From an uncultured delta proteobacterium (GTDB taxonomy: Bacteria; Desulfobacterota; Deferrisomatia; Deferrisomatales; JACRMM01): a DNA stretch of 64,000 nt. Shown piece after piece: positions 50,996-64,000 of this stretch. Position 1 is the stretch's first letter. The number at the start of each line of letters is the position of its first letter. Below the pieces are notes generated by a model. It searched no databases, had not been told where the DNA came from, and worked only from the letters and a program-made list of their open reading frames with translations. The translations under genes were made by a program, and so were the position numbers. The DNA lies in NCBI GenBank assembly GCA_963707045.1, contig CAVPOV010000015.1:16619-80618 (forward strand), read 5' to 3'.

Positions 50996-52918
50996 TCAAC
51001 GGGGTCCCCCCGCGCCCGGCGCGGCGGCCCCGTCCAGGCGGGCGCGCACGGCATCCGCGGCCGACCCATCCAAACCGGCCTCCAGCGCCCGGCGGTAGGC
51101 CAGCAACGCCTCGTCGCGCCGGCCCTCCGCCTCCAGGAGCGCTCCCAGGCGGGCCAGGGCCGCGGCCCGAAACGGTCCGGCGTCGTCGGCCTGCGCCGCG
51201 AAGGCGGCCCGCGCCTCGTCCGCCCGCCCCAGGGCCCAGAGCGCCTCGGCCTCCTGGTAGGCCGCCCGCCCCGGCTCCCCCCCCTCCCTGGCCAGGGGCG
51301 CCCACCGGAGGACTCCTTCCCAGTCCCCGGACCGGAAGGCCCGGTCCACGAGCTCGGAGGCGGCCCCCGGCGCCCTCGCCGGGTCCCGGGTCTCGGCCAC
51401 GGACTCCAGCGAGGAGACGTAGGCCCCCTCGTCCCCGGCGTCCTTCAGGTGGCGGGCCCGCCTCTCCAGGAATGCGGCGCGGTCCTTCCCGTCGGGCGAA
51501 CCGGCGGCCAGCCGCAGGCAGAGCCCGGCAGCCCGGACCGGATCGGGGACGGCCTCCGCCGCGGACAGGGCGGTGAGGAGGACCTCCCCGGACACCCCCT
51601 CCGACGCGAGCAGGGGCTCGAGGCGGTCCAACGCCTCGCGGGCGCGCGCGGCGCCGAGCAGCGCCCGGGCGGCTAGCAGACGGGCCTCCTCGTAGCCGGT
51701 GGCTCCCGGCGGCACCCCATCCCAGTGGACCACGGCCTGGTCGATCCCCCCGGCCGCCGCGGCCAGGGTGAGGCGGACGACTCCGCGCTCCTCCGCGGTC
51801 AACTCCTTCTCCCGGGCCAGGAGCTGGGAGGCGTGGCGGGCCGCACCGGCGGCGTCCCCGGCAGCCACCGCGACGGCCATGGCCGCCTTGCGCACCTCCA
51901 GCAGCCTCTCCTTCACCGCGGGGTCGTCCGGCCTCGCCAGGGCGGCCTCCAGGTGGCGGAGCGCACCGGCCAGGTCCCCCGCGCTCCGGAGCACGTCCGA
52001 GAGGGCGAGATGGGCCTTCACGGCGAGGGGCCCCTTGGGGTCCTCCCGCAGACACGTCTCCAGGGCGGAACGGGCGCCGGGAGCCTCCCCGACCCGGGCC
52101 CGGGCCAGCCCCTCCTCGCAAAGTGCCCGCGCGCGGACCTGGCGGTCCCCGGCCCCTGCGGCGAGGGCGGCCCACAGCCCCGCTTCCCCGGCGGGGTCGC
52201 CCTGCTGGCGGGCCGCCTCGACCCCGGCGAGCACCACCGCCTCCAGGGCCTCGGGCTCGGCACGGAGGGCCGCGTCCGCCAGGGCGTCGCCGACCGCGGC
52301 CCGCACCGCCCCGGCGCCGGCGGGTCGGGTCGCGGAGACCCGCCCGGCCCAGGCGACGGCGCGTCTCGGGTCCCCCGGGGCCCCCTTCAGGAAGGCGCCG
52401 TAGCGCTCCGCCCGCCGCGCGGGGGGCTCCACCCCCTCCGAGAGCTCCGCGGCGAGGAACAGGGCGTCGACGCGGCGCTCCCCCCCCTTGGCCCCGAGGT
52501 AGCGGTCCAGCAGCGCGAGCGCCTCCTTGCCCTCGCCGGCGCGGGAGGCCACCCAGGCGAGCCAGTAGCCCGCCTCCCGGCCCGACGGCCCGCCGAGGGC
52601 CCGGACCTCCTCCCAGACCGCACGGGCGGCCTTCCAGTCGGAGCGGGCCATCTCCACCTGGGCGAGGACGCGGAGCACGTCGGGGCGGCGCGGGTCTGCC
52701 GGCGCAGCGGCGAGGAAGGCGCGAAGCTCCTTGGAGGCGAGGTCGTGGAAGCCGTCGCGGTAGGCCTTGAGGCCGACGGTCAAGCGGTCCTGGGACGAGG
52801 CGGCCCGGGCGGGCACCGTGCCGCCCGGCGCCCCCGAGAGCAGGAGGGACGCCCCGAGGACGAGGCAGAGCCCGAACCGCCCTGTCGCCCCCCTGCCGCC
52901 GGTCCGGCGAGCCCCCAC
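50996..52918 (-). CDS. Exported TPR-repeat protein
   Basis: Signal peptide; multiple Ala/Leu-rich TPR-like helices over about 600 aa. Confidence 0.8.
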   Translation of the reverse strand: MGARRTGGRGATGRFGLCLVLGASLLLSGAPGGTVPARAASSQDRLTVGLKAYRDGFHDLASKELRAFLAAAPADPRRPDVLRVLAQVEMARSDWKAARAVWEEVRALGGPSGREAGYWLAWVASRAGEGKEALALLDRYLGAKGGERRVDALFLAAELSEGVEPPARRAERYGAFLKGAPGDPRRAVAWAGRVSATRPAGAGAVRAAVGDALADAALRAEPEALEAVVLAGVEAARQQGDPAGEAGLWAALAAGAGDRQVRARALCEEGLARARVGEAPGARSALETCLREDPKGPLAVKAHLALSDVLRSAGDLAGALRHLEAALARPDDPAVKERLLEVRKAAMAVAVAAGDAAGAARHASQLLAREKELTAEERGVVRLTLAAAAGGIDQAVVHWDGVPPGATGYEEARLLAARALLGAARAREALDRLEPLLASEGVSGEVLLTALSAAEAVPDPVRAAGLCLRLAAGSPDGKDRAAFLERRARHLKDAGDEGAYVSSLESVAETRDPARAPGAASELVDRAFRSGDWEGVLRWAPLAREGGEPGRAAYQEAEALWALGRADEARAAFAAQADDAGPFRAAALARLGALLEAEGRRDEALLAYRRALEAGLDGSAADAVRARLDGAAAPGAGGPR

Positions 52919-52928
52919 CCCGGCGCTC

Positions 52929-56196
<3,268 letters not shown>

Positions 56197-56297
56197 GACT
56201 CGGCTCTCCGCTGGGCGGCCGGGCGGCTGGGCGGCTGGCGGTGGGGGGCCGGGGCGCCTCGGCCCCGGGATCCTCGGCTGCCCGGCCGCCTCGCGGC

Positions 56298-57437
56298 CTA
56301 GCCGTTCTTTTCCATCATCTCGATGAAGCGGCGGAACAGGTAGGCGGCGTCGTGGGGGCCCGGGCTCGCCTCGGGGTGGTACTGGACGCTGAAGAGCGGC
56401 AGTTCCCGGTGCGGATGCCCTCCACGGTCCGGTCGTTGAGGTTGACGTGGGTGACCTCGACGGCGTCGCCGTGCTCGGAGCGCTCGAGGCTCTCCAGGTC
56501 GACGACGAAGTTGTGGTTCTGGCTGGTGATCTCGACCTTGCCGGTGGACAGGTCCTTCACCGGCTGGTTGCCGCCGTGGTGGCCGAACTTGAGCTTGACG
56601 GTCGTTGCCGCCCGAGCGCCAGGCCGATGATCTGGTTGCCGAGGCAGATGCCGAAGATCGGCACCTTGCCCAGCAGCTCCCGCACCGCCTCGACGGCGTA
56701 GGGAACCCCCTGCGGGTCGCCGGGCCCGTTGGAGAGGAACACGCCGTCCGGGGATCAGGGCCAGCACCTCCCGGGCCGAGGTGTGGGCGGGCACCACCGT
56801 CACGTCGCACCCCACCGCCGTGAGGCGGCGCAGGATGTTGTACTTGACCCCGAAGTCGTAGGCCACCACCTTGTACCCGCCCGGGCGCCGGGGCTTCTCG
56901 TAGCCCCACCCCGAGCGACCAGTCCCCCACCTCCCACCGGTAGGGCTCGCGGCACGTGACCTCCCGGACGAGGTCGCGCCCCTCGATGCGCCGGAGCGGA
57001 CCGCGGCCCGGTCCACGAGGGCGTCGGCGTCGGCATCCTCCCGGTGGCGATGACCCCGATCATCGACCCCTTCTCCCGGAGGCGCCGGGTCAGCGCGCGG
57101 GTGTCGATCCCCTGGATGCCGACGACGCCCTGGTCGGCCAGGAACCGGTGGAGGCTCTTGGTCGCGCGCCAGTTGGAGGGGGTCTCCCACGCCTCCTTGA
57201 CGATGAAGCCCTCCACGTGGATGCGCGACGACTCGAAGTCCTCCTCGTTCACCCCGTAGTTGCCGATCTCCGTGTAGGTCATGGCCACCATCTGGCCCTT
57301 GTAGGAGGGGTCGGAGAGCATCTCCTGGTAGCCCATCATGCTCGTGTTGAACACGACCTCGCCGACGGTCTCCCCTTCGGCCCCGAAGGACCAGCCCTGG
57401 AAGACGGTCCCGTCGGCGAGGGCCAGCAGCGCCTTCC

Positions 57438-57441
<4 letters not shown>
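56298..57441 (-). CDS. carA: Carbamoyl-phosphate synthase small subunit (frameshifts)
   Basis: [34 protein letters not shown] and [12 protein letters not shown]. Confidence 0.95.
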
Positions 57442-59688
<2,247 letters not shown>

Positions 59689-59690
59689 GG

Positions 59691-60284
59691 TCAGCTCCCG
59701 TCGCCCCGGCGGTCCGGCATGCCCGGCAGCCAAGGGCCGCTCCCCGGCTCCAGCAAGGCCAGGGAGTCCTCCCCGCTCGTCTCGCGCAGCCGGAGCTCGA
59801 CCCGCTGGTCGCGCACCGTGCGTACCACGTGCCCCACGTAGTCCGCCTGGATCGGGAGTTCCCGGTGCCCCCGGTCCACCAGCACCGCGAGTTGCACCGC
59901 CCGCGGCCGTCCGAAGTCCATGAGGGCGTCCAGCCCCGCCCGCACCGTGCGCCCCGTGAAGAGGACGTCGTCCACGAGGACCACGACCCGGTCGTCGAGG
60001 TCGAAGGGGATGTCCGTGGGCTTGGGGACGGGGTGGCGCCCCGGCAGGGAGACGTCGTCGCGGTACAGGGTGATGTCGAGCCGGCCCAGGGGCACGTCCA
60101 CGCCCTCGGCCTGGCGGATCAGGTCGCGCAGGCGCTCCGCCAGGAGGGCCCCCCGGGTCACCACGCCGACCAGCACGAGCCCCTCGGTGCCGCGGTTGCG
60201 CTCCACGACCTCGTGGGCCATTCGTGCGAGGGTCCTGCGCACGGAGTCTTCGTTGAGGAGGAGTCGGTCGGCGGCGTCCGTCAC
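59691..60284 (-). CDS. pyrR: Bifunctional pyr regulator/uracil phosphoribosyltransferase
   Basis: [30 protein letters not shown] and [15 protein letters not shown]. Confidence 0.95.
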
Positions 60285-60288
60285 GGCG

Positions 60289-60360
60289 CTAACTCAAAAA
60301 AAAGCCTTCTCGCGTCGCTGGAGAAGGCTCGTTTCGTCGGAAGATTCGGAGGGCGGCCAT
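60289..60360 (-). CDS. Putative 23-aa leader peptide MAALRIFRRNEPSPATREGFFLS
   Basis: SD GAGGAAGG next to the ATG; four CGA codons; spans the terminator; its TAG ends 4 nt before the pyrR GTG. Confidence 0.55.
   Translation of the reverse strand: MAALRIFRRNEPSPATREGFFLS
60296..60329 (-). terminator. Attenuator terminator in the pyrR leader
   Basis: AGCCTTCTC-N9-GAGAAGGCT running into an 8-T tract, located between the promoter and pyrR. Confidence 0.88.
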
Positions 60361-60396
60361 TCCTTCCTCGGGGGGCCCGGGTCCGAAAGTCGGCGA

Positions 60397-60425
60397 ACTA
60401 TAGCATCCGCTTCGGGGGGGGTCAA
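60397..60425 (-). promoter_or_regulatory. sigma70 promoter of the pyr/car operon
   Basis: TTGACC-N17-TATAGT with an extended -10 TG. Confidence 0.85.
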
Positions 60426-60562
60426 CGCCCTTGCTCCCGATCGGCGGCTCGGAGTGAAATGACGGCACCGGAGAACGCGGCGGGCGTACGCCCCGGTCCC
60501 GGCGCAGCACCCGGCGCGGCCGGGGCGGGTGGGCGGCGGCCCTCCGAATCGAGGAAACGCTC

Positions 60563-61303
60563 GTGGAACGAGACCGGAGACCCCAGCCCGGCGTGCGACG
60601 GCGCAAGGGGCGCACGCGCCGCGGCGCGACCACCGGGGGCGGCACGGGGAAGGCATCCCGCCAGGACCTGGAGCGTCACGTGATCGCGGTCCAGCGCACC
60701 GTGAGAACCTGCGGCGGCTGCGGTCAGTGCTGCACCGAGGGGTACAACGCGGTCCGCATCCTGCCCGCGGAGGCGGTCCGGATCGTTCGCCACCTGGGCG
60801 GCCTCCCGCCGGCGCGGCGGGACCCCCTCCTGCGCCGCGCGTGGGAGTCGGTCGAACGCTACGGCCTGCGCAGCGACGGGCCGAAGGTGCGCTGCACCTG
60901 CCCGTTCCTCGAGGACGACCTGCGGTGCGCCCTGCCCCTCCGCGTGAAGCCGACCGCGTGCCTCTCGTTCAACCCCCTGGGCCCGGGGCGCTGCGGCCAG
61001 GAGCCCGGGTGGTACTTCGCCGTCCACGACCGGGAGGAGATCGAGAACCGCCGCGCGGGGCTCGACGCACGGGACGCGCCGATTCCCGTGGCCGTGCTGG
61101 CGACGCTCCGGGACGACCCCGGGCTCCACGCACCAGGACCGAACGGGCTGGAACCAAAGGCTCCTTCGGGGGTGCACGGCCGGACCAAGCCGTCTGGTGG
61201 CGGTCCACCCCGCGCACACGCCGAATCGGGAATCCGGCCCCGCACGAGCGCCGTCGAACCCCGACCTCCTCGCACACGTCGCCGGCGCCGGTTGAGTGGC
61301 TGA
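60563..61303 (+). CDS. YkgJ-family (CxxCxxCC) cysteine-cluster protein; ends uncertain
   Basis: CGGCGQCC, CPFL...C...KPTAC. Confidence 0.8.
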   Translation: MERDRRPQPGVRRRKGRTRRGATTGGGTGKASRQDLERHVIAVQRTVRTCGGCGQCCTEGYNAVRILPAEAVRIVRHLGGLPPARRDPLLRRAWESVERYGLRSDGPKVRCTCPFLEDDLRCALPLRVKPTACLSFNPLGPGRCGQEPGWYFAVHDREEIENRRAGLDARDAPIPVAVLATLRDDPGLHAPGPNGLEPKAPSGVHGRTKPSGGGPPRAHAESGIRPRTSAVEPRPPRTRRRRRLSG

Positions 61304-61325
61304 CGTGGTCGACCTCCCCTGTTCG

Positions 61326-61742
61326 TCAACTCACATCCCAACCCGCCAAGAACTCGATGGGCGTCAGCACCCCGAGGCCGCCGCGGGGAAAGTCGTCGGG
61401 ATTGCGGGTCACGAGGGCCTCGGCTCCCGCACGCAGGGCCGAGAAATACTGGATCGCGTCCTCGAAGTCGGCGAAGTCCGCGTCCATCGCCTGGTTGAGC
61501 ACTTGGGCCGTCAAGTCGACGGGCTGGAACACGTCCCGAAGAAGGCGCAGCGCCTCCAGGGCTTTGGCCATTCCTGCGTGTCTCCGGATCACGTAGTAGC
61601 AATTGTTGTAACTGATCGCCGAGATCACCCCCGTGACGCGCCCCGCTTCGGCCAGGCTCCACACCCTCGCCGAGGGCGCGTAGAAGGGCTCCCGTGCAGC
61701 CAGCACGTCGAGCAGAACGTTGGTGTCCACGTGGACGACCAT
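61326..61742 (-). CDS. PIN-domain toxin (VapC-like)
   Basis: VDTNVLLD, DFEDAIQY and LVTRNPDDF. Confidence 0.9.
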   Translation of the reverse strand: MVVHVDTNVLLDVLAAREPFYAPSARVWSLAEAGRVTGVISAISYNNCYYVIRRHAGMAKALEALRLLRDVFQPVDLTAQVLNQAMDADFADFEDAIQYFSALRAGAEALVTRNPDDFPRGGLGVLTPIEFLAGWDVS

Positions 61743-61744
61743 CG

Positions 61745-61996
61745 CTACTCCTCGTACCGCTCGGCGAACGCCTCCTCGACGAGTTCCCGGTCGCTCCGCC
61801 CCGCGGGCAGGGTCACGAGCCCGGTGGCCCGCCGGGTCAGCGGGCCCGGCTCCTCGCACCGCGACCGCACCGAGACCGCCGCCTTGACGAAGCGAGCGAA
61901 CATCGAAGACACGCTCGTCCCGCTCTCCTCGGCCAACCACTTGGCCTGGGCCACCACCTCGTCGTCCGCGCTCAGCGTAAGCTTCGTCATCGCCAT
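61745..61996 (-). CDS. Antitoxin, RHH-like (DUF6364-type)
   Basis: TKLTLSADDEVVAQAK...GTSVSSM; lies directly upstream of the PIN gene. Confidence 0.82.
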   Translation of the reverse strand: MAMTKLTLSADDEVVAQAKWLAEESGTSVSSMFARFVKAAVSVRSRCEEPGPLTRRATGLVTLPAGRSDRELVEEAFAERYEE

Positions 61997-62358
61997 GCCG
62001 CACTCCGCACCCTCACGAATACGTACACAGTTTTGAGACTACCACGTATCCGTCCGCTCCTCCAAGCCATTGCCGAAATCCCCGTCAGGCAGATAACCCG
62101 AGCGTGAGCCTTCCTGCCCACGGTCGCCGAGTTGTCGGAGGGGCCCGCCGTGCACGGCACGCCCTCGCAATCCCCACTCCCCCCGCGTCCGGCAGAGGCC
62201 GGGAGATCGGGCACTTTCCGCGGCACCGACGGGCAAGAGGACGGTCCGCCAATCGCCGAGGCCCCGCAGACGTCCGGCGTGTGCCAAGTCCCGGTTGCCT
62301 CGGTCCCTCCGCCCGGGTGAGGATTGTGGACGACCGAACCGCACCACAGGAGATCGCC

Positions 62359-62793
62359 ATGCCCGACACCTACCTCGTCCAATGCGCCGGCTGCGGAACC
62401 CGCAACCGGATCCCCCACGAGAAGGCCGCCCTGGCCGGCCGGTGCGGCCGGTGCGGGGCGCACCTGCTCCCGTCCCACGCCCTGCCCATGGCGGTGACGG
62501 ACGCCTCCTGGGGCGAGCAGGTGCTCGGGTCCTCCGTGCCCACCGTGGTCGAGGTGTGGAGCCCCCGGTGCGGAATCTGCTCGCAGTACGAGGTGAGCGT
62601 TCGGCAGCTGGCGGTGCGCCTCTTCGGAAAGGCCCGGGTGCTCCAGCTCGACGCCGAGGAGAACCCGGCGACCGCGGCCCGCTACGGGATCCAGGGCGTG
62701 CCCACCCTTCTCCTGTTTCGAGACGGAAGACTCGTCTCCACACTCCACGGGCCCCAGGGAGAAAAGGGTATTCGAGAAATCCTGAAGATCTGA
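62359..62793 (+). CDS. TrxC-like thioredoxin with an N-terminal zinc finger
   Basis: CAGCGTRNR...CGRCG, active site WSPRCGIC and YGIQGVPTL. Confidence 0.88.
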   Translation: MPDTYLVQCAGCGTRNRIPHEKAALAGRCGRCGAHLLPSHALPMAVTDASWGEQVLGSSVPTVVEVWSPRCGICSQYEVSVRQLAVRLFGKARVLQLDAEENPATAARYGIQGVPTLLLFRDGRLVSTLHGPQGEKGIREILKI

Positions 62794-62829
62794 CGCCGGG
62801 CTGCCCCCCTTCACCGCCCCCCAAGGGGT

Positions 62830-62913
62830 TGTCGCCCGACGGCGACAACCGGACCCGGCCTCCCGGGCCGCCCGCCCGCCCCAGCCCTTCGCGGGCGTCT
62901 CCGATCGCAGACA
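62830..62913. promoter_or_regulatory. Two putative sigma54-activator enhancer sites
   Basis: TGTC-N10-GACA at 62830-62847 (inside a perfect 10-bp inverted repeat) and CGTC-N10-GACA at 62896-62913. Confidence 0.55.
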
Positions 62914-62978
62914 CTTCCGCCCTCCCAAGAAGGGGGTGGCACCTCCCCGAGCCCCCAGATCCCCGGTCGGGCCGCGGT

Positions 62979-62994
62979 TGGCACCGAGATTGCA
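62979..62994 (+). promoter_or_regulatory. sigma54 (-24/-12) promoter
   Basis: TGGCAC-CGAGA-TTGCA matches TGGCAC-N5-TTGCW exactly. Confidence 0.8.
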
Positions 62995-63004
62995 AAACCT
63001 CGGG

Positions 63005-63110
63005 GCAACGCCGTCCCTCTCCTCCTCGGGCCGGTGCCGGCCGCACTCTGCGGCCCCTCTCTTCCTCTCCTCCTCCTCTCTTGGGGAGGGCCGCCCGGCC
63101 CTCCCCGCAC
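63005..63110 (+). ncRNA. Candidate ~100-nt small RNA with anti-SD CU-rich motifs
   Basis: Starts at the expected +1 of the sigma54 promoter; has three hairpins and CCUCCU-rich loop and linker; no plausible plus-strand CDS follows. Confidence 0.55.
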
Positions 63111-63129
63111 TGTCTCGGGCAACGACGCT

Positions 63130-63633
63130 TCACCCCTGCGGCGCGGCGTCGCCCAGGTAGTGCCGCACCATGGACGGCGTGCAGGGACCGAAGTCGAAGT
63201 GGGGCGCCATGTCCCGGAGGAAGACCTCCCGCGGGTGCAGCAGGTAGAGCCCCTCGGCCTCGGCGAGCAGCGTGCCGTCCGCGGCCTCGAGGACCCCCCG
63301 GCCGACGACCTTGCGCCCCGGCTGCGGCTCGGCCCCTGCCCGCAGCACGAAGCGCTGCCCCAGGCGGGCCGGGGCCCGGAAGTGCGTCGTGAGGCTCAGG
63401 GTGACCGAGGTGGTGGCGAACCGGTGCCCCACCGCCCAGTAGATGACGTCGTCGAGCAGGGCCGACTGGATGCCCCCGTGCAGGATGCCGGGGTAGCCGC
63501 ACACCTCCTCCCCCGGCGACACCGCGCCCACCACGCTGCCGGCGGCGGCGTCCCAGGAGTAGGCGATCCCGAACCCACGGGGATTCCCGCTCCCGCAGAA
63601 GAAGCAGCTCCGAAACGAGGGAAGGCGCTCCAT
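63130..63633 (-). CDS. PaaI-family thioesterase
   Basis: CFFCGSGNPRG and GYPGILHGGIQSALLDD. Confidence 0.88.
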   Translation of the reverse strand: MERLPSFRSCFFCGSGNPRGFGIAYSWDAAAGSVVGAVSPGEEVCGYPGILHGGIQSALLDDVIYWAVGHRFATTSVTLSLTTHFRAPARLGQRFVLRAGAEPQPGRKVVGRGVLEAADGTLLAEAEGLYLLHPREVFLRDMAPHFDFGPCTPSMVRHYLGDAAPQG

Positions 63634-63772
63634 GGACGGCTCCTGTCGGGGCGGCGGCCTCGCTCGCAGGCCTTGAACGTTCGGGCTCGCGGCCTGTAGA
63701 TTCCCCCAGCCGGGTCCCCGTTGCAATGCCGGGCCCCTGCCTACCGAGGATCCCCCAACCCGAGCCGCGCCC

Positions 63773-64000
63773 TTGTCCGCTGACGCCTCCCCCCGCTCCC
63801 CGCTCGCCGCCGCGGCTTTCGCGTACGCGGTCGCCTGCGCCGGGGGGCTGGCGGTCCTCCCCCACCTCGAGCGCCCCCTCTCCACCTACGGGGCCCTTCA
63901 CGCCGGGGCCGTGCTCCTGGGGCGCGATCCCCTCCAGGGCCTGCTGTGGGGCCTCGGGCTGGGAGCAGCGCTGGCGGCGACGGGCGAGGGCCTGACGCGC
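63773..64000 (+). CDS. Membrane protein N-terminus (partial; possibly a CPBP/CAAX protease)
   Basis: Open hydrophobic frame LAAAAFAYAVACAGGLAVL...LLWGLGLGAALAA running to the window edge. The family assignment is a guess. Confidence 0.55.
   Translation, partial: MSADASPRSPLAAAAFAYAVACAGGLAVLPHLERPLSTYGALHAGAVLLGRDPLQGLLWGLGLGAALAATGEGLTR

Follow-up and report, generated by a model that had tools for sequence, protein, structure and literature searches.

A leader open reading frame that runs through an intrinsic terminator: a probable translation-coupled attenuator of the pyrR-pyrB-pyrC-carA-carB operon in an uncultured bacterial class

The window analysed here is the whole stretch of DNA, 64,000 nucleotides in length, and its pyrimidine biosynthesis operon is read from the minus strand. 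A promoter, a short leader open reading frame (ORF) and an intrinsic terminator precede pyrR, which is followed by pyrB, pyrC, carA and carB:

60397..60425, minus strand: promoter, with the –35 element TTGACC (60425-60420), a 17-nt spacer, the extended –10 TG (60405-60404) and the –10 element TATAGT (60402-60397).
60361..60391, minus strand: 5′ untranslated region (UTR) of about 30 nt, carrying the leader Shine–Dalgarno sequence (SD) GAGGAAGG at 60369-60362.
60345..60387, minus strand: predicted hairpin UUCGGA...UCCGAA, whose apical part contains the SD and the AUG.
60289..60360, minus strand: leader ORF of 23 codons plus TAG, encoding MAALRIFRRNEPSPATREGFFLS; ATG at 60360, TAG at 60291-60289.
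60296..60336, minus strand: intrinsic terminator, with the A tract CGAAA (60336-60332), the stem GAGCCUUCUCC (60330-60320) and GAGAAGGCUU (60311-60302), the loop AGCGAC, and U8 at 60303-60296.
60285..60295, minus strand: junction, with GAG (60295-60293), the leader stop TAG (60291-60289) and the spacer CGCC.
59691..60284, minus strand: pyrR homologue of 197 amino acids, with a GTG start at 60284.
52780..59733, minus strand: pyrB, pyrC, carA and carB, recognized by Pfam matches on ORF pieces, each gene being split over several frames.

The pyrR assignment is supported by a match to NCBIfam NF003549 (229 bits against a cut-off of 138) and by matches of its product to solved PyrR proteins at E values of 1e-57 to 1e-61. 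The class to which the organism belongs is uncultured and small, and our comparison covers one order, four families and 21 species; pyrR is the first gene in all 21 of these genomes. Over 2,226 columns aligned with the congener L002 (92.6% identity), the window shows 10 one-base gaps. These gaps, mostly an extra base in the window and outside homopolymers, all lie downstream of 59230, and none falls in the leader or in pyrR. The splitting of pyrB, pyrC, carA and carB looks like assembly error rather than gene decay. The genome assembly comprises 31 contigs at 69% G+C, with a marker-gene completeness of 70%; in a search of sequencing runs, a fraction of at most 0.27 of the sampled words was present in any run, and two RNA runs gave 0.04.

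The initial annotation, made from the sequence of the window, had placed a strong sigma70 promoter ahead of the leader, and this holds: the site has 10 of 12 consensus matches in a promoter scan and is the single promoter-like site within 59600-61400, where shuffled sequences yield a mean of 0.0. The TTGAC and TG-TA-A elements are invariant across 16 aligned class leaders, and we infer a transcription start at about 60391-60389. One A separates GAGGAAGG from the leader ATG, the SD-A-ATG arrangement already described. The hairpin UUCGGA...UCCGAA, which may serve as a pause or SD-occluding element, is confined to genus g1 among the class leaders folded, and the whole-leader z-score of only –0.54 lends it little weight. 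Divergent from the pyr promoter, at 60563-61303 on the plus strand, is a Cys-rich ORF of 246 amino acids (CGGCGQCC and further Cys pairs) with no Pfam match at E ≤ 0.001. At 61326-61996 on the minus strand, a DUF6364 protein (61745-61996) and a PIN-domain protein (61326-61760) overlap at their ends and likely form a toxin-antitoxin pair.

The leader ORF runs through the terminator, and its TAG lies 4 nt past the U tract and, as the initial annotation had noted, 4 nt before the pyrR GTG. The same annotation saw no clear SD for pyrR. The site is indeed weak but not wholly absent, a remnant GAG being left at the junction where relatives keep GAGGUG 5–7 nt before the start. A further caution, that the length of the T8 run sets the frame of the last leader codons, finds its answer in the congeners L002 and L003, which share both the T8 length and the leader frame (I-F becoming I-L).

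Conservation of the ORF was scored by a rule that asks for an SD word 4–11 nt before an ATG or GTG, a start 27–45 nt from the terminator 5′ arm and, as a further condition, a frame open to within 10 nt of that arm. The search for a conserved start codon proposed with the initial annotation finds SD and start kept in 10 of 12 genus representatives, compared with 0.55 expected from dinucleotide shuffles (Poisson-binomial P = 3.5e-13). This P value overstates the case, because the rule was written after the data had been seen and the genera are related; the effect is large even so. Nine of the ten passing starts are ATG and one is GTG. The two representatives that fail are L014, which has an ATG with no SD at the right spacing, and L020, where an ATG lacking an SD lies 54 nt before the arm and the frame of an alternative TTG closes before it.

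What is kept across the class is the presence and position of the ORF, with the start 30–41 nt upstream of the 5′ arm; its sequence and frame are not kept. All three frames are used, the leader peptides are unrelated between genera, and the upstream nucleotide sequence is not conserved between families even though the layout is. The leader stops lie –31 to +10 nt from the pyrR start in class relatives, and this placement holds even where 50–156 nt separate the terminator from pyrR (L011-L014). Long ORFs that stay open past the terminator, as in these four genomes, are weak evidence by themselves, because by our arithmetic about 37% of 46-codon stretches stay open by chance at this GC content. 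Overlaps of the ATGA or GTGA type join the leader stop to the pyrR start in L004, L014 and L019. Judged by these sequence comparisons, the leader ORF and terminator are a real, conserved unit.

Departures from the layout occur within the class. In the upstream sequence covered, the standard terminator was not found before pyrR in L006, L007 and L010, the last of which ends at a contig end. Within genus g2, to which L005 also belongs, L006 has another hairpin with U8 about 130 nt upstream of pyrR, and L007 has two similar units in tandem with a weakened T run (CTTTTTCTC); going by these three genomes, the pyr leader changes fast inside one genus. In genus g7 (L010, L011, L012 and L013) a second element lies between the terminator and pyrR, 20–60 nt before the latter. 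In it, pyrimidine-rich repeats on the pattern CCAGCCUUCUAGC, such as CUUCCUAGCCUUCCAGCCUUCUAGCC, are arrayed in tandem ahead of AAAGGGUCCUCCC-AUG, and the leader ORF passes through the element. The leaders of family f3 (L017, L019, L022 and L023) open with AUG-GG(A/G)-N3-CC(C/A), that is MG-x-P, which could form a tiny GGG/CCC hairpin just past the start codon, and in L017 and L019 the SD lies inside a local GAGG-AAU-CCUC hairpin.

The terminator hairpin of the window, GAGCCUUCUCC/GAGAAGGCU with U8 (60330-60296), has a folding energy of –17.5 kcal/mol (z = –3.44), and two of 200 shuffled sequences fold as well; a simple terminator scan of 59600-61400 reported no site. Runs of at least eight T or A residues are rare in this genome, with only 27 in 3.56 Mb. 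In the alignment of 15 class terminators, five pairs (CCUUC/GAAGG) are invariant and one pair shows a compensatory change, and A:U pairs join the A tract to the U tract. The 3′ arm G-N-GAGAAGG, the T run (U8-9) and the GAG that follows are invariant in 16 class leaders. The upper stem and 5′ arm shift register across the class, while the 3′ arm stays fixed. Pairing alone fails to explain this invariance, and the 3′ arm could represent a binding site.

A scan of genome contigs for the motif CCTTC-N4-20-GAGAAGG-Y-T8 yielded at least 120 loci. Among the matches listed, 106 are unrelated terminators without a pyrR, for the most part from Bacteroidota, and 14 precede pyrR, two of them in class members. 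This set is uninformative on conservation of the arm outside the class, because the loci were chosen by the motif itself. Within the genome under study (70% complete) the pyrR copy of the motif is the only one, so there is no sign of a regulon.

The initial annotation had pointed out that the leader SD can pair with CCUUCUC, the 5′ arm of the terminator. This pairing is possible on paper, with 7 pairs and one bulge, but is absent from the nascent RNA fold of the window. In an RNA-only switch the ORF would be incidental, and antitermination would come from pairing of the SD-like element with the pyrimidine-rich 5′ arm. Such a model could draw on this complementarity and on nascent folds in which the arm pairs with the SD element (L017, L020 and L022) or with another 5′ GGAG-like element (L009, L011 and L018). 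In L014, however, the arm pairs with nothing, and any SD is complementary to any CCUCC-like arm. Nor would such a switch explain why the start keeps a fixed spacing in 10 of 12 genera or why the leader stops are placed at the pyrR start. We regard this switch as very improbable, and a conserved SD:arm antiterminator was dropped as inconsistent across genera in the nascent folds.

The leader carries four Arg codons (60348-46, 60339-37, 60336-34 and 60312-10), all of them CGA, which accounts for 5.8% of Arg codons in the genome (283,778 codons from long ORFs with high GC3). The initial annotation was right that this codon is rare locally and that CGA-CGA, codons 8 and 9, sits just before the terminator 5′ arm. 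From these two observations and from the presence of carAB in the operon it had proposed that, when arginine is scarce, a ribosome stalls at codons 8-9 and masks the 5′ arm, thereby raising expression of carAB and the pyr genes. The geometry would allow masking in genus g1, as codons 8-9 end 3–6 nt before the GC core, within the range of ribosome repression given in PMC4824070. Among related leaders, L013 also has CGA-CGA before the arm, L004 has CGA-CGC, and L011 and L012 each have a single CGA.

The wider comparison speaks against stalling on Arg codons and a link to arginine supply. Genera g1 and g3 have three Arg codons before the stem, g2, g5 and g10 have two, g8 and g11 have one, g7 has one or two, g6 at most one, and g4 and g9 lack them. 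In family f3, which is richer in AT, Lys takes their place in four of the five leaders scored, with no or one Arg codon, and L017 has none. CGA itself is kept only in g1, g3 and g7. The alignment of codons beside the terminator thus gives 0–3 Arg codons per leader, and the hallmark of an amino-acid (Arg) attenuator, a conserved cluster of Arg codons at the controlling position, is not seen in these leaders. Arg makes up 25 of 183 codons (13.7%) before the arm in the class leaders, close to the approximately 15% expected, by our arithmetic, from random sequence of this composition. A is the third base in 19 of the 25 (CGA or AGA), which lie in a stretch that is 25–67% A over its final 12 nt. 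Codon 9 lies in the CGAAA A tract, which pairs with the U tract, and codon 17 in the class-invariant arm GAGAAGG. An Arg stall is also not needed, because the leader ORF itself crosses the terminator, so that a moving, coupled ribosome already blocks the hairpin; a stall further upstream would raise termination, according to PMC5021804.

Supply of the decoding tRNA is a further point against the arginine model. The genome has a tRNA-Arg(ACG), and another ARAGORN call, an odd tRNA-Arg(TCG) of 101 nt, would decode CGA directly. The latter is one of two long tRNA-Arg calls (ccg, 93 nt; tcg, 101 nt, anticodon at position 38), which could be introns, indel errors or false calls. On balance we consider masking by an Arg stall most improbable, and arginine very unlikely to be the signal sensed. 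The case warns against inferring amino-acid sensing from rare codons that the A tract of a terminator imposes.

The initial annotation found no clean Bacillus-type PyrR loop and proposed a Rfam scan; neither Rfam nor a model of our own brings one to light. The Rfam PyrR model (RF00515) has no match at E ≤ 10 in window positions 55000-64000 and none in 20 class loci, and it matches three of ten loci from the phylum (L021, L024 and L027) at 47.8–53.8 bits, against a gathering score of 54. We built a covariance model of the loop alone (R1) from 18 canonical loops of other lineages and ran it with filters off. On the 20 class loci it gives three matches at E values of 2–7.5, none of them in the leader 5′ UTR; as controls, it matches its 18 training loops by construction and misses the loop-like locus L169. 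Likenesses to the loop were picked out by eye, among them CCCGGG(A/G), shared by families f1 and f4, and the CCCCUGGGAGAGG of L015; they were dropped, as R1 gives them no support.

The loop-bearing loci come from the motif scan (Nitrospirota, 'delta proteobacterium' and others) and from PyrR homology within the phylum. Their canonical loop reads CCUUUAA-stem-CNGNGA-stem-AAAGGGAG, and in 15 of the 18 loci its 3′ strand (AAGGGAG) is the SD of a short ORF. These 15 ORFs stop at the foot of the terminator (five), inside it (four) or past it (six).

The loop has a counterpart in the protein. Arg-146 and Lys-152 of B. subtilis PyrR are reported to be RNA-binding residues (Savacool and Switzer 2002). 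Solved PyrR proteins read PIRADYVGKN in this segment, and solved and loop-associated proteins together follow PI-R-AD-Y-VG-K/R-N. In the PyrR of the window, Q occupies the PI-R-AD position and H-V replaces K/R-N, and across the class the segment reads PI-Q-(A/P)-D-Y-x-G-H/Q/L/M. Among 64 distinct loci, R/K together with K/R-N is found in 17 of the 18 that bear a loop, the alignment being cut in the 18th, and in two of the 46 with no detected loop, L067, with its upstream sequence truncated by the end of the contig, and L169, loop-like when inspected by eye. The combination is absent from 21 of 21 class loci: the first position is Q in 20 and R in one, and K/R-N occurs in none. The class thus lacks both the loop and the motif while the ORF, terminator and junction are kept, and loop and protein partner appear to have been lost together. 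In other lineages, L110, L039 and L045 from the motif scan parallel the class studied here: their pyrR, whose product has Q in place of R146, follows a CCUUCUC...GAGAAGG-U8/9 terminator, and a binding loop is lacking. By eye, L110 has a longer leader ORF that reads across this terminator and whose stop overlaps a possible pyrR start as ATGA.

A diverged PyrR (Q146, H152) might still bind the leader RNA at a changed site, either the purine-rich SD element (GAGGAAGG and the like) or the terminator loop and 3′ arm N-G-N-G-A-GAAGG, such that high uridine nucleotides would cause PyrR to block leader translation or to stabilize the terminator, a form of Thermus-type gating. The unbroken retention of pyrR as first gene fits such gating, as do an N-terminal VRRxLARMAHE that resembles solved PyrR proteins and the constancy of the 3′ arm G-N-GAGAAGG despite the register shifts of the 5′ arm. 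In addition, the 6 nt before GAAGG read N-G-N-G-A in 15 of 15 class terminators and resemble the hexaloop C-N-G-N-G-A, but this likeness was spotted after the fact in sequence that is invariant anyway. Against a changed site stand the two models, which detect no loop-like structure, the lack of the loop-associated protein motif throughout the class, and the single copy of the RNA motif in the 70%-complete genome, with no sign of a regulon. We consider such gating doubtful.

The reading that we prefer, and hold to be probable, is that the unit is a translation-coupled transcription attenuator of the pyrR-pyrB-pyrC-carA-carB operon, similar to that of pyrBI and derived from a PyrR-gated one. The polymerase would start about 30 nt upstream of the 23-codon leader ORF, which crosses the strong intrinsic terminator (hairpin and U8) and has its stop codon 4 nt short of the pyrR start. 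A ribosome that keeps close to the polymerase would sit over the 5′ arm, so that no hairpin forms and the operon is transcribed, and the same ribosome, terminating beside the weak pyrR start site, would probably re-initiate there. With the leader untranslated, or the ribosome lagging, the hairpin would form and transcription would stop. The parts of this unit, their conservation and their geometry are observed directly; from them we infer that the ribosome suppresses termination. Re-initiation at pyrR is suggested by the placement of the leader stop next to a weak start.

Published work on other leaders is consistent with these steps. For E. coli pyrL it is established that tight coupling keeps the terminator from forming (PMC5021804). 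According to PMC4824070, termination efficiency is approximately 90% with a stop codon 28 bp upstream of the terminator and under 10% once the stop codon is moved to 5 bp, and beyond 27 nt the stop codon is without effect on the terminator. The abstract of PMC4833913 proposes a re-initiation role for leader genes. The ribosome-mediated attenuation put forward in the initial annotation is therefore retained as the best reading of the conserved ORF and terminator, and pyrBI-type coupling fits better than stall masking because the ORF reads through the whole terminator.

As to what is sensed, nucleotide-dependent coupling of polymerase and ribosome is a possible signal, held tentatively; a diverged PyrR site is a doubtful one, and general translation status is unlikely. 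The stretch from the AUG to the hairpin has no U-rich pause region and no U run (T fraction 0.15 in the window, 0.02–0.18 across the class), so UTP sensing would have no visible handle except the U tract. Autoregulation is hinted at, because pyrR remains the first gene.

Textbook accounts of pyrimidine operon control set PyrR with an RNA loop (Bacillus and the like) against ribosome–polymerase coupling (enterobacteria). The loci compared here form a continuum, in which many lineages combine both solutions and the class keeps the ribosome part alone. The design of a leader ORF through a terminator is already known, and what differs here, as far as the sequences tell, is the loss of the PyrR loop. 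We tentatively suggest, as a possibility short of even likelihood, that this uncultured class has turned a PyrR-gated attenuator into a ribosome-only one, losing the loop and the PyrR surface and keeping the ORF, terminator and junction. If true, the class would represent a natural intermediate on a route by which PyrR-type attenuation can give rise to the pyrBI type. In a bolder variant, the invariant G-N-GAGAAGG-U9 arm would be a new recognition site for the altered PyrR (Q146, H152) or for the polymerase, and the pyrimidine signal would be read directly at the terminator. Either way, the locus offers a concrete, testable case of regulatory turnover, and PI-R/K-x-D-x-x-G-K/R-N a simple candidate rule for predicting which PyrR homologues still bind RNA.

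The unit shares with the Bacillus-type PyrR attenuator (RF00515) its position upstream of pyrR and the pyr genes, with an intrinsic terminator directly upstream of the operon, a pyrimidine-rich 5′ arm and a long U tract. The phylum relative L024, with its RF00515-like score, has the same CCUUC...GAAGG-U9 terminator as the class does. The window differs in having no binding loop (CCUUU/AAAGG stem, hexaloop C-N-G-N-G-A) or anti-antiterminator, the translated ORF taking the role of the antiterminator, and the basic PyrR surface (Arg-146 and Lys-152, the reported RNA-binding residues) appears to be missing from its sequence.

Among the closest known arrangements is the pyrR-pyrB-bbc-pyrC leader of Thermus strain ZO5, reportedly described by Van de Casteele et al. 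in 1997 (J Bacteriol 179:3470), in which a PyrR box is said to lie on the leader SD and a translating ribosome was reportedly proposed to replace the antiterminator. On this description, the features in common are pyrR as the first gene, a leader ORF that overlaps and invades the intrinsic terminator, and a translating ribosome, in place of a long antiterminator, proposed to prevent the hairpin. The same layout with the canonical loop is seen in 15 of 18 loci of neighboring lineages. The window differs in that no loop, and no PyrR site, is detectable over its SD and start, and its PyrR has no R/K plus K/R-N. In the open full-text literature searched, we found no paper on the Thermus leader or on a loop-less pyrR leader ORF.

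Like pyrL-pyrBI of E. coli and Salmonella, the window has a leader ORF that crosses the terminator hairpin and ends close to the first structural gene; the unit lies ahead of pyrimidine biosynthesis genes, which it would control, and would need no RNA-binding regulator. UTP-sensitive pausing at U-rich sites before the hairpin is a defining feature of pyrBI, and the E. coli pyrL ORF has 44 codons. The leader of the window, in contrast, has 23 codons and no U-rich pause region before its hairpin, and its operon begins with pyrR and also holds pyrC and carAB. Its origin would be an independent one, from a PyrR-type attenuator; having lost the loop and the accompanying PyrR motif, the unit would work like E. 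coli pyrBI, where readthrough is determined by how the lead ribosome is coupled to the polymerase (PMC5021804 and PMC4824070).

With trpL, hisL, leuL and pheL the unit shares a short translated leader before an intrinsic terminator, whose fate depends on the position of the ribosome. Unlike those leaders, it has no conserved run of regulatory codons and no conserved 2:3-type antiterminator, and its ORF extends across the terminator, whereas theirs end upstream of it.
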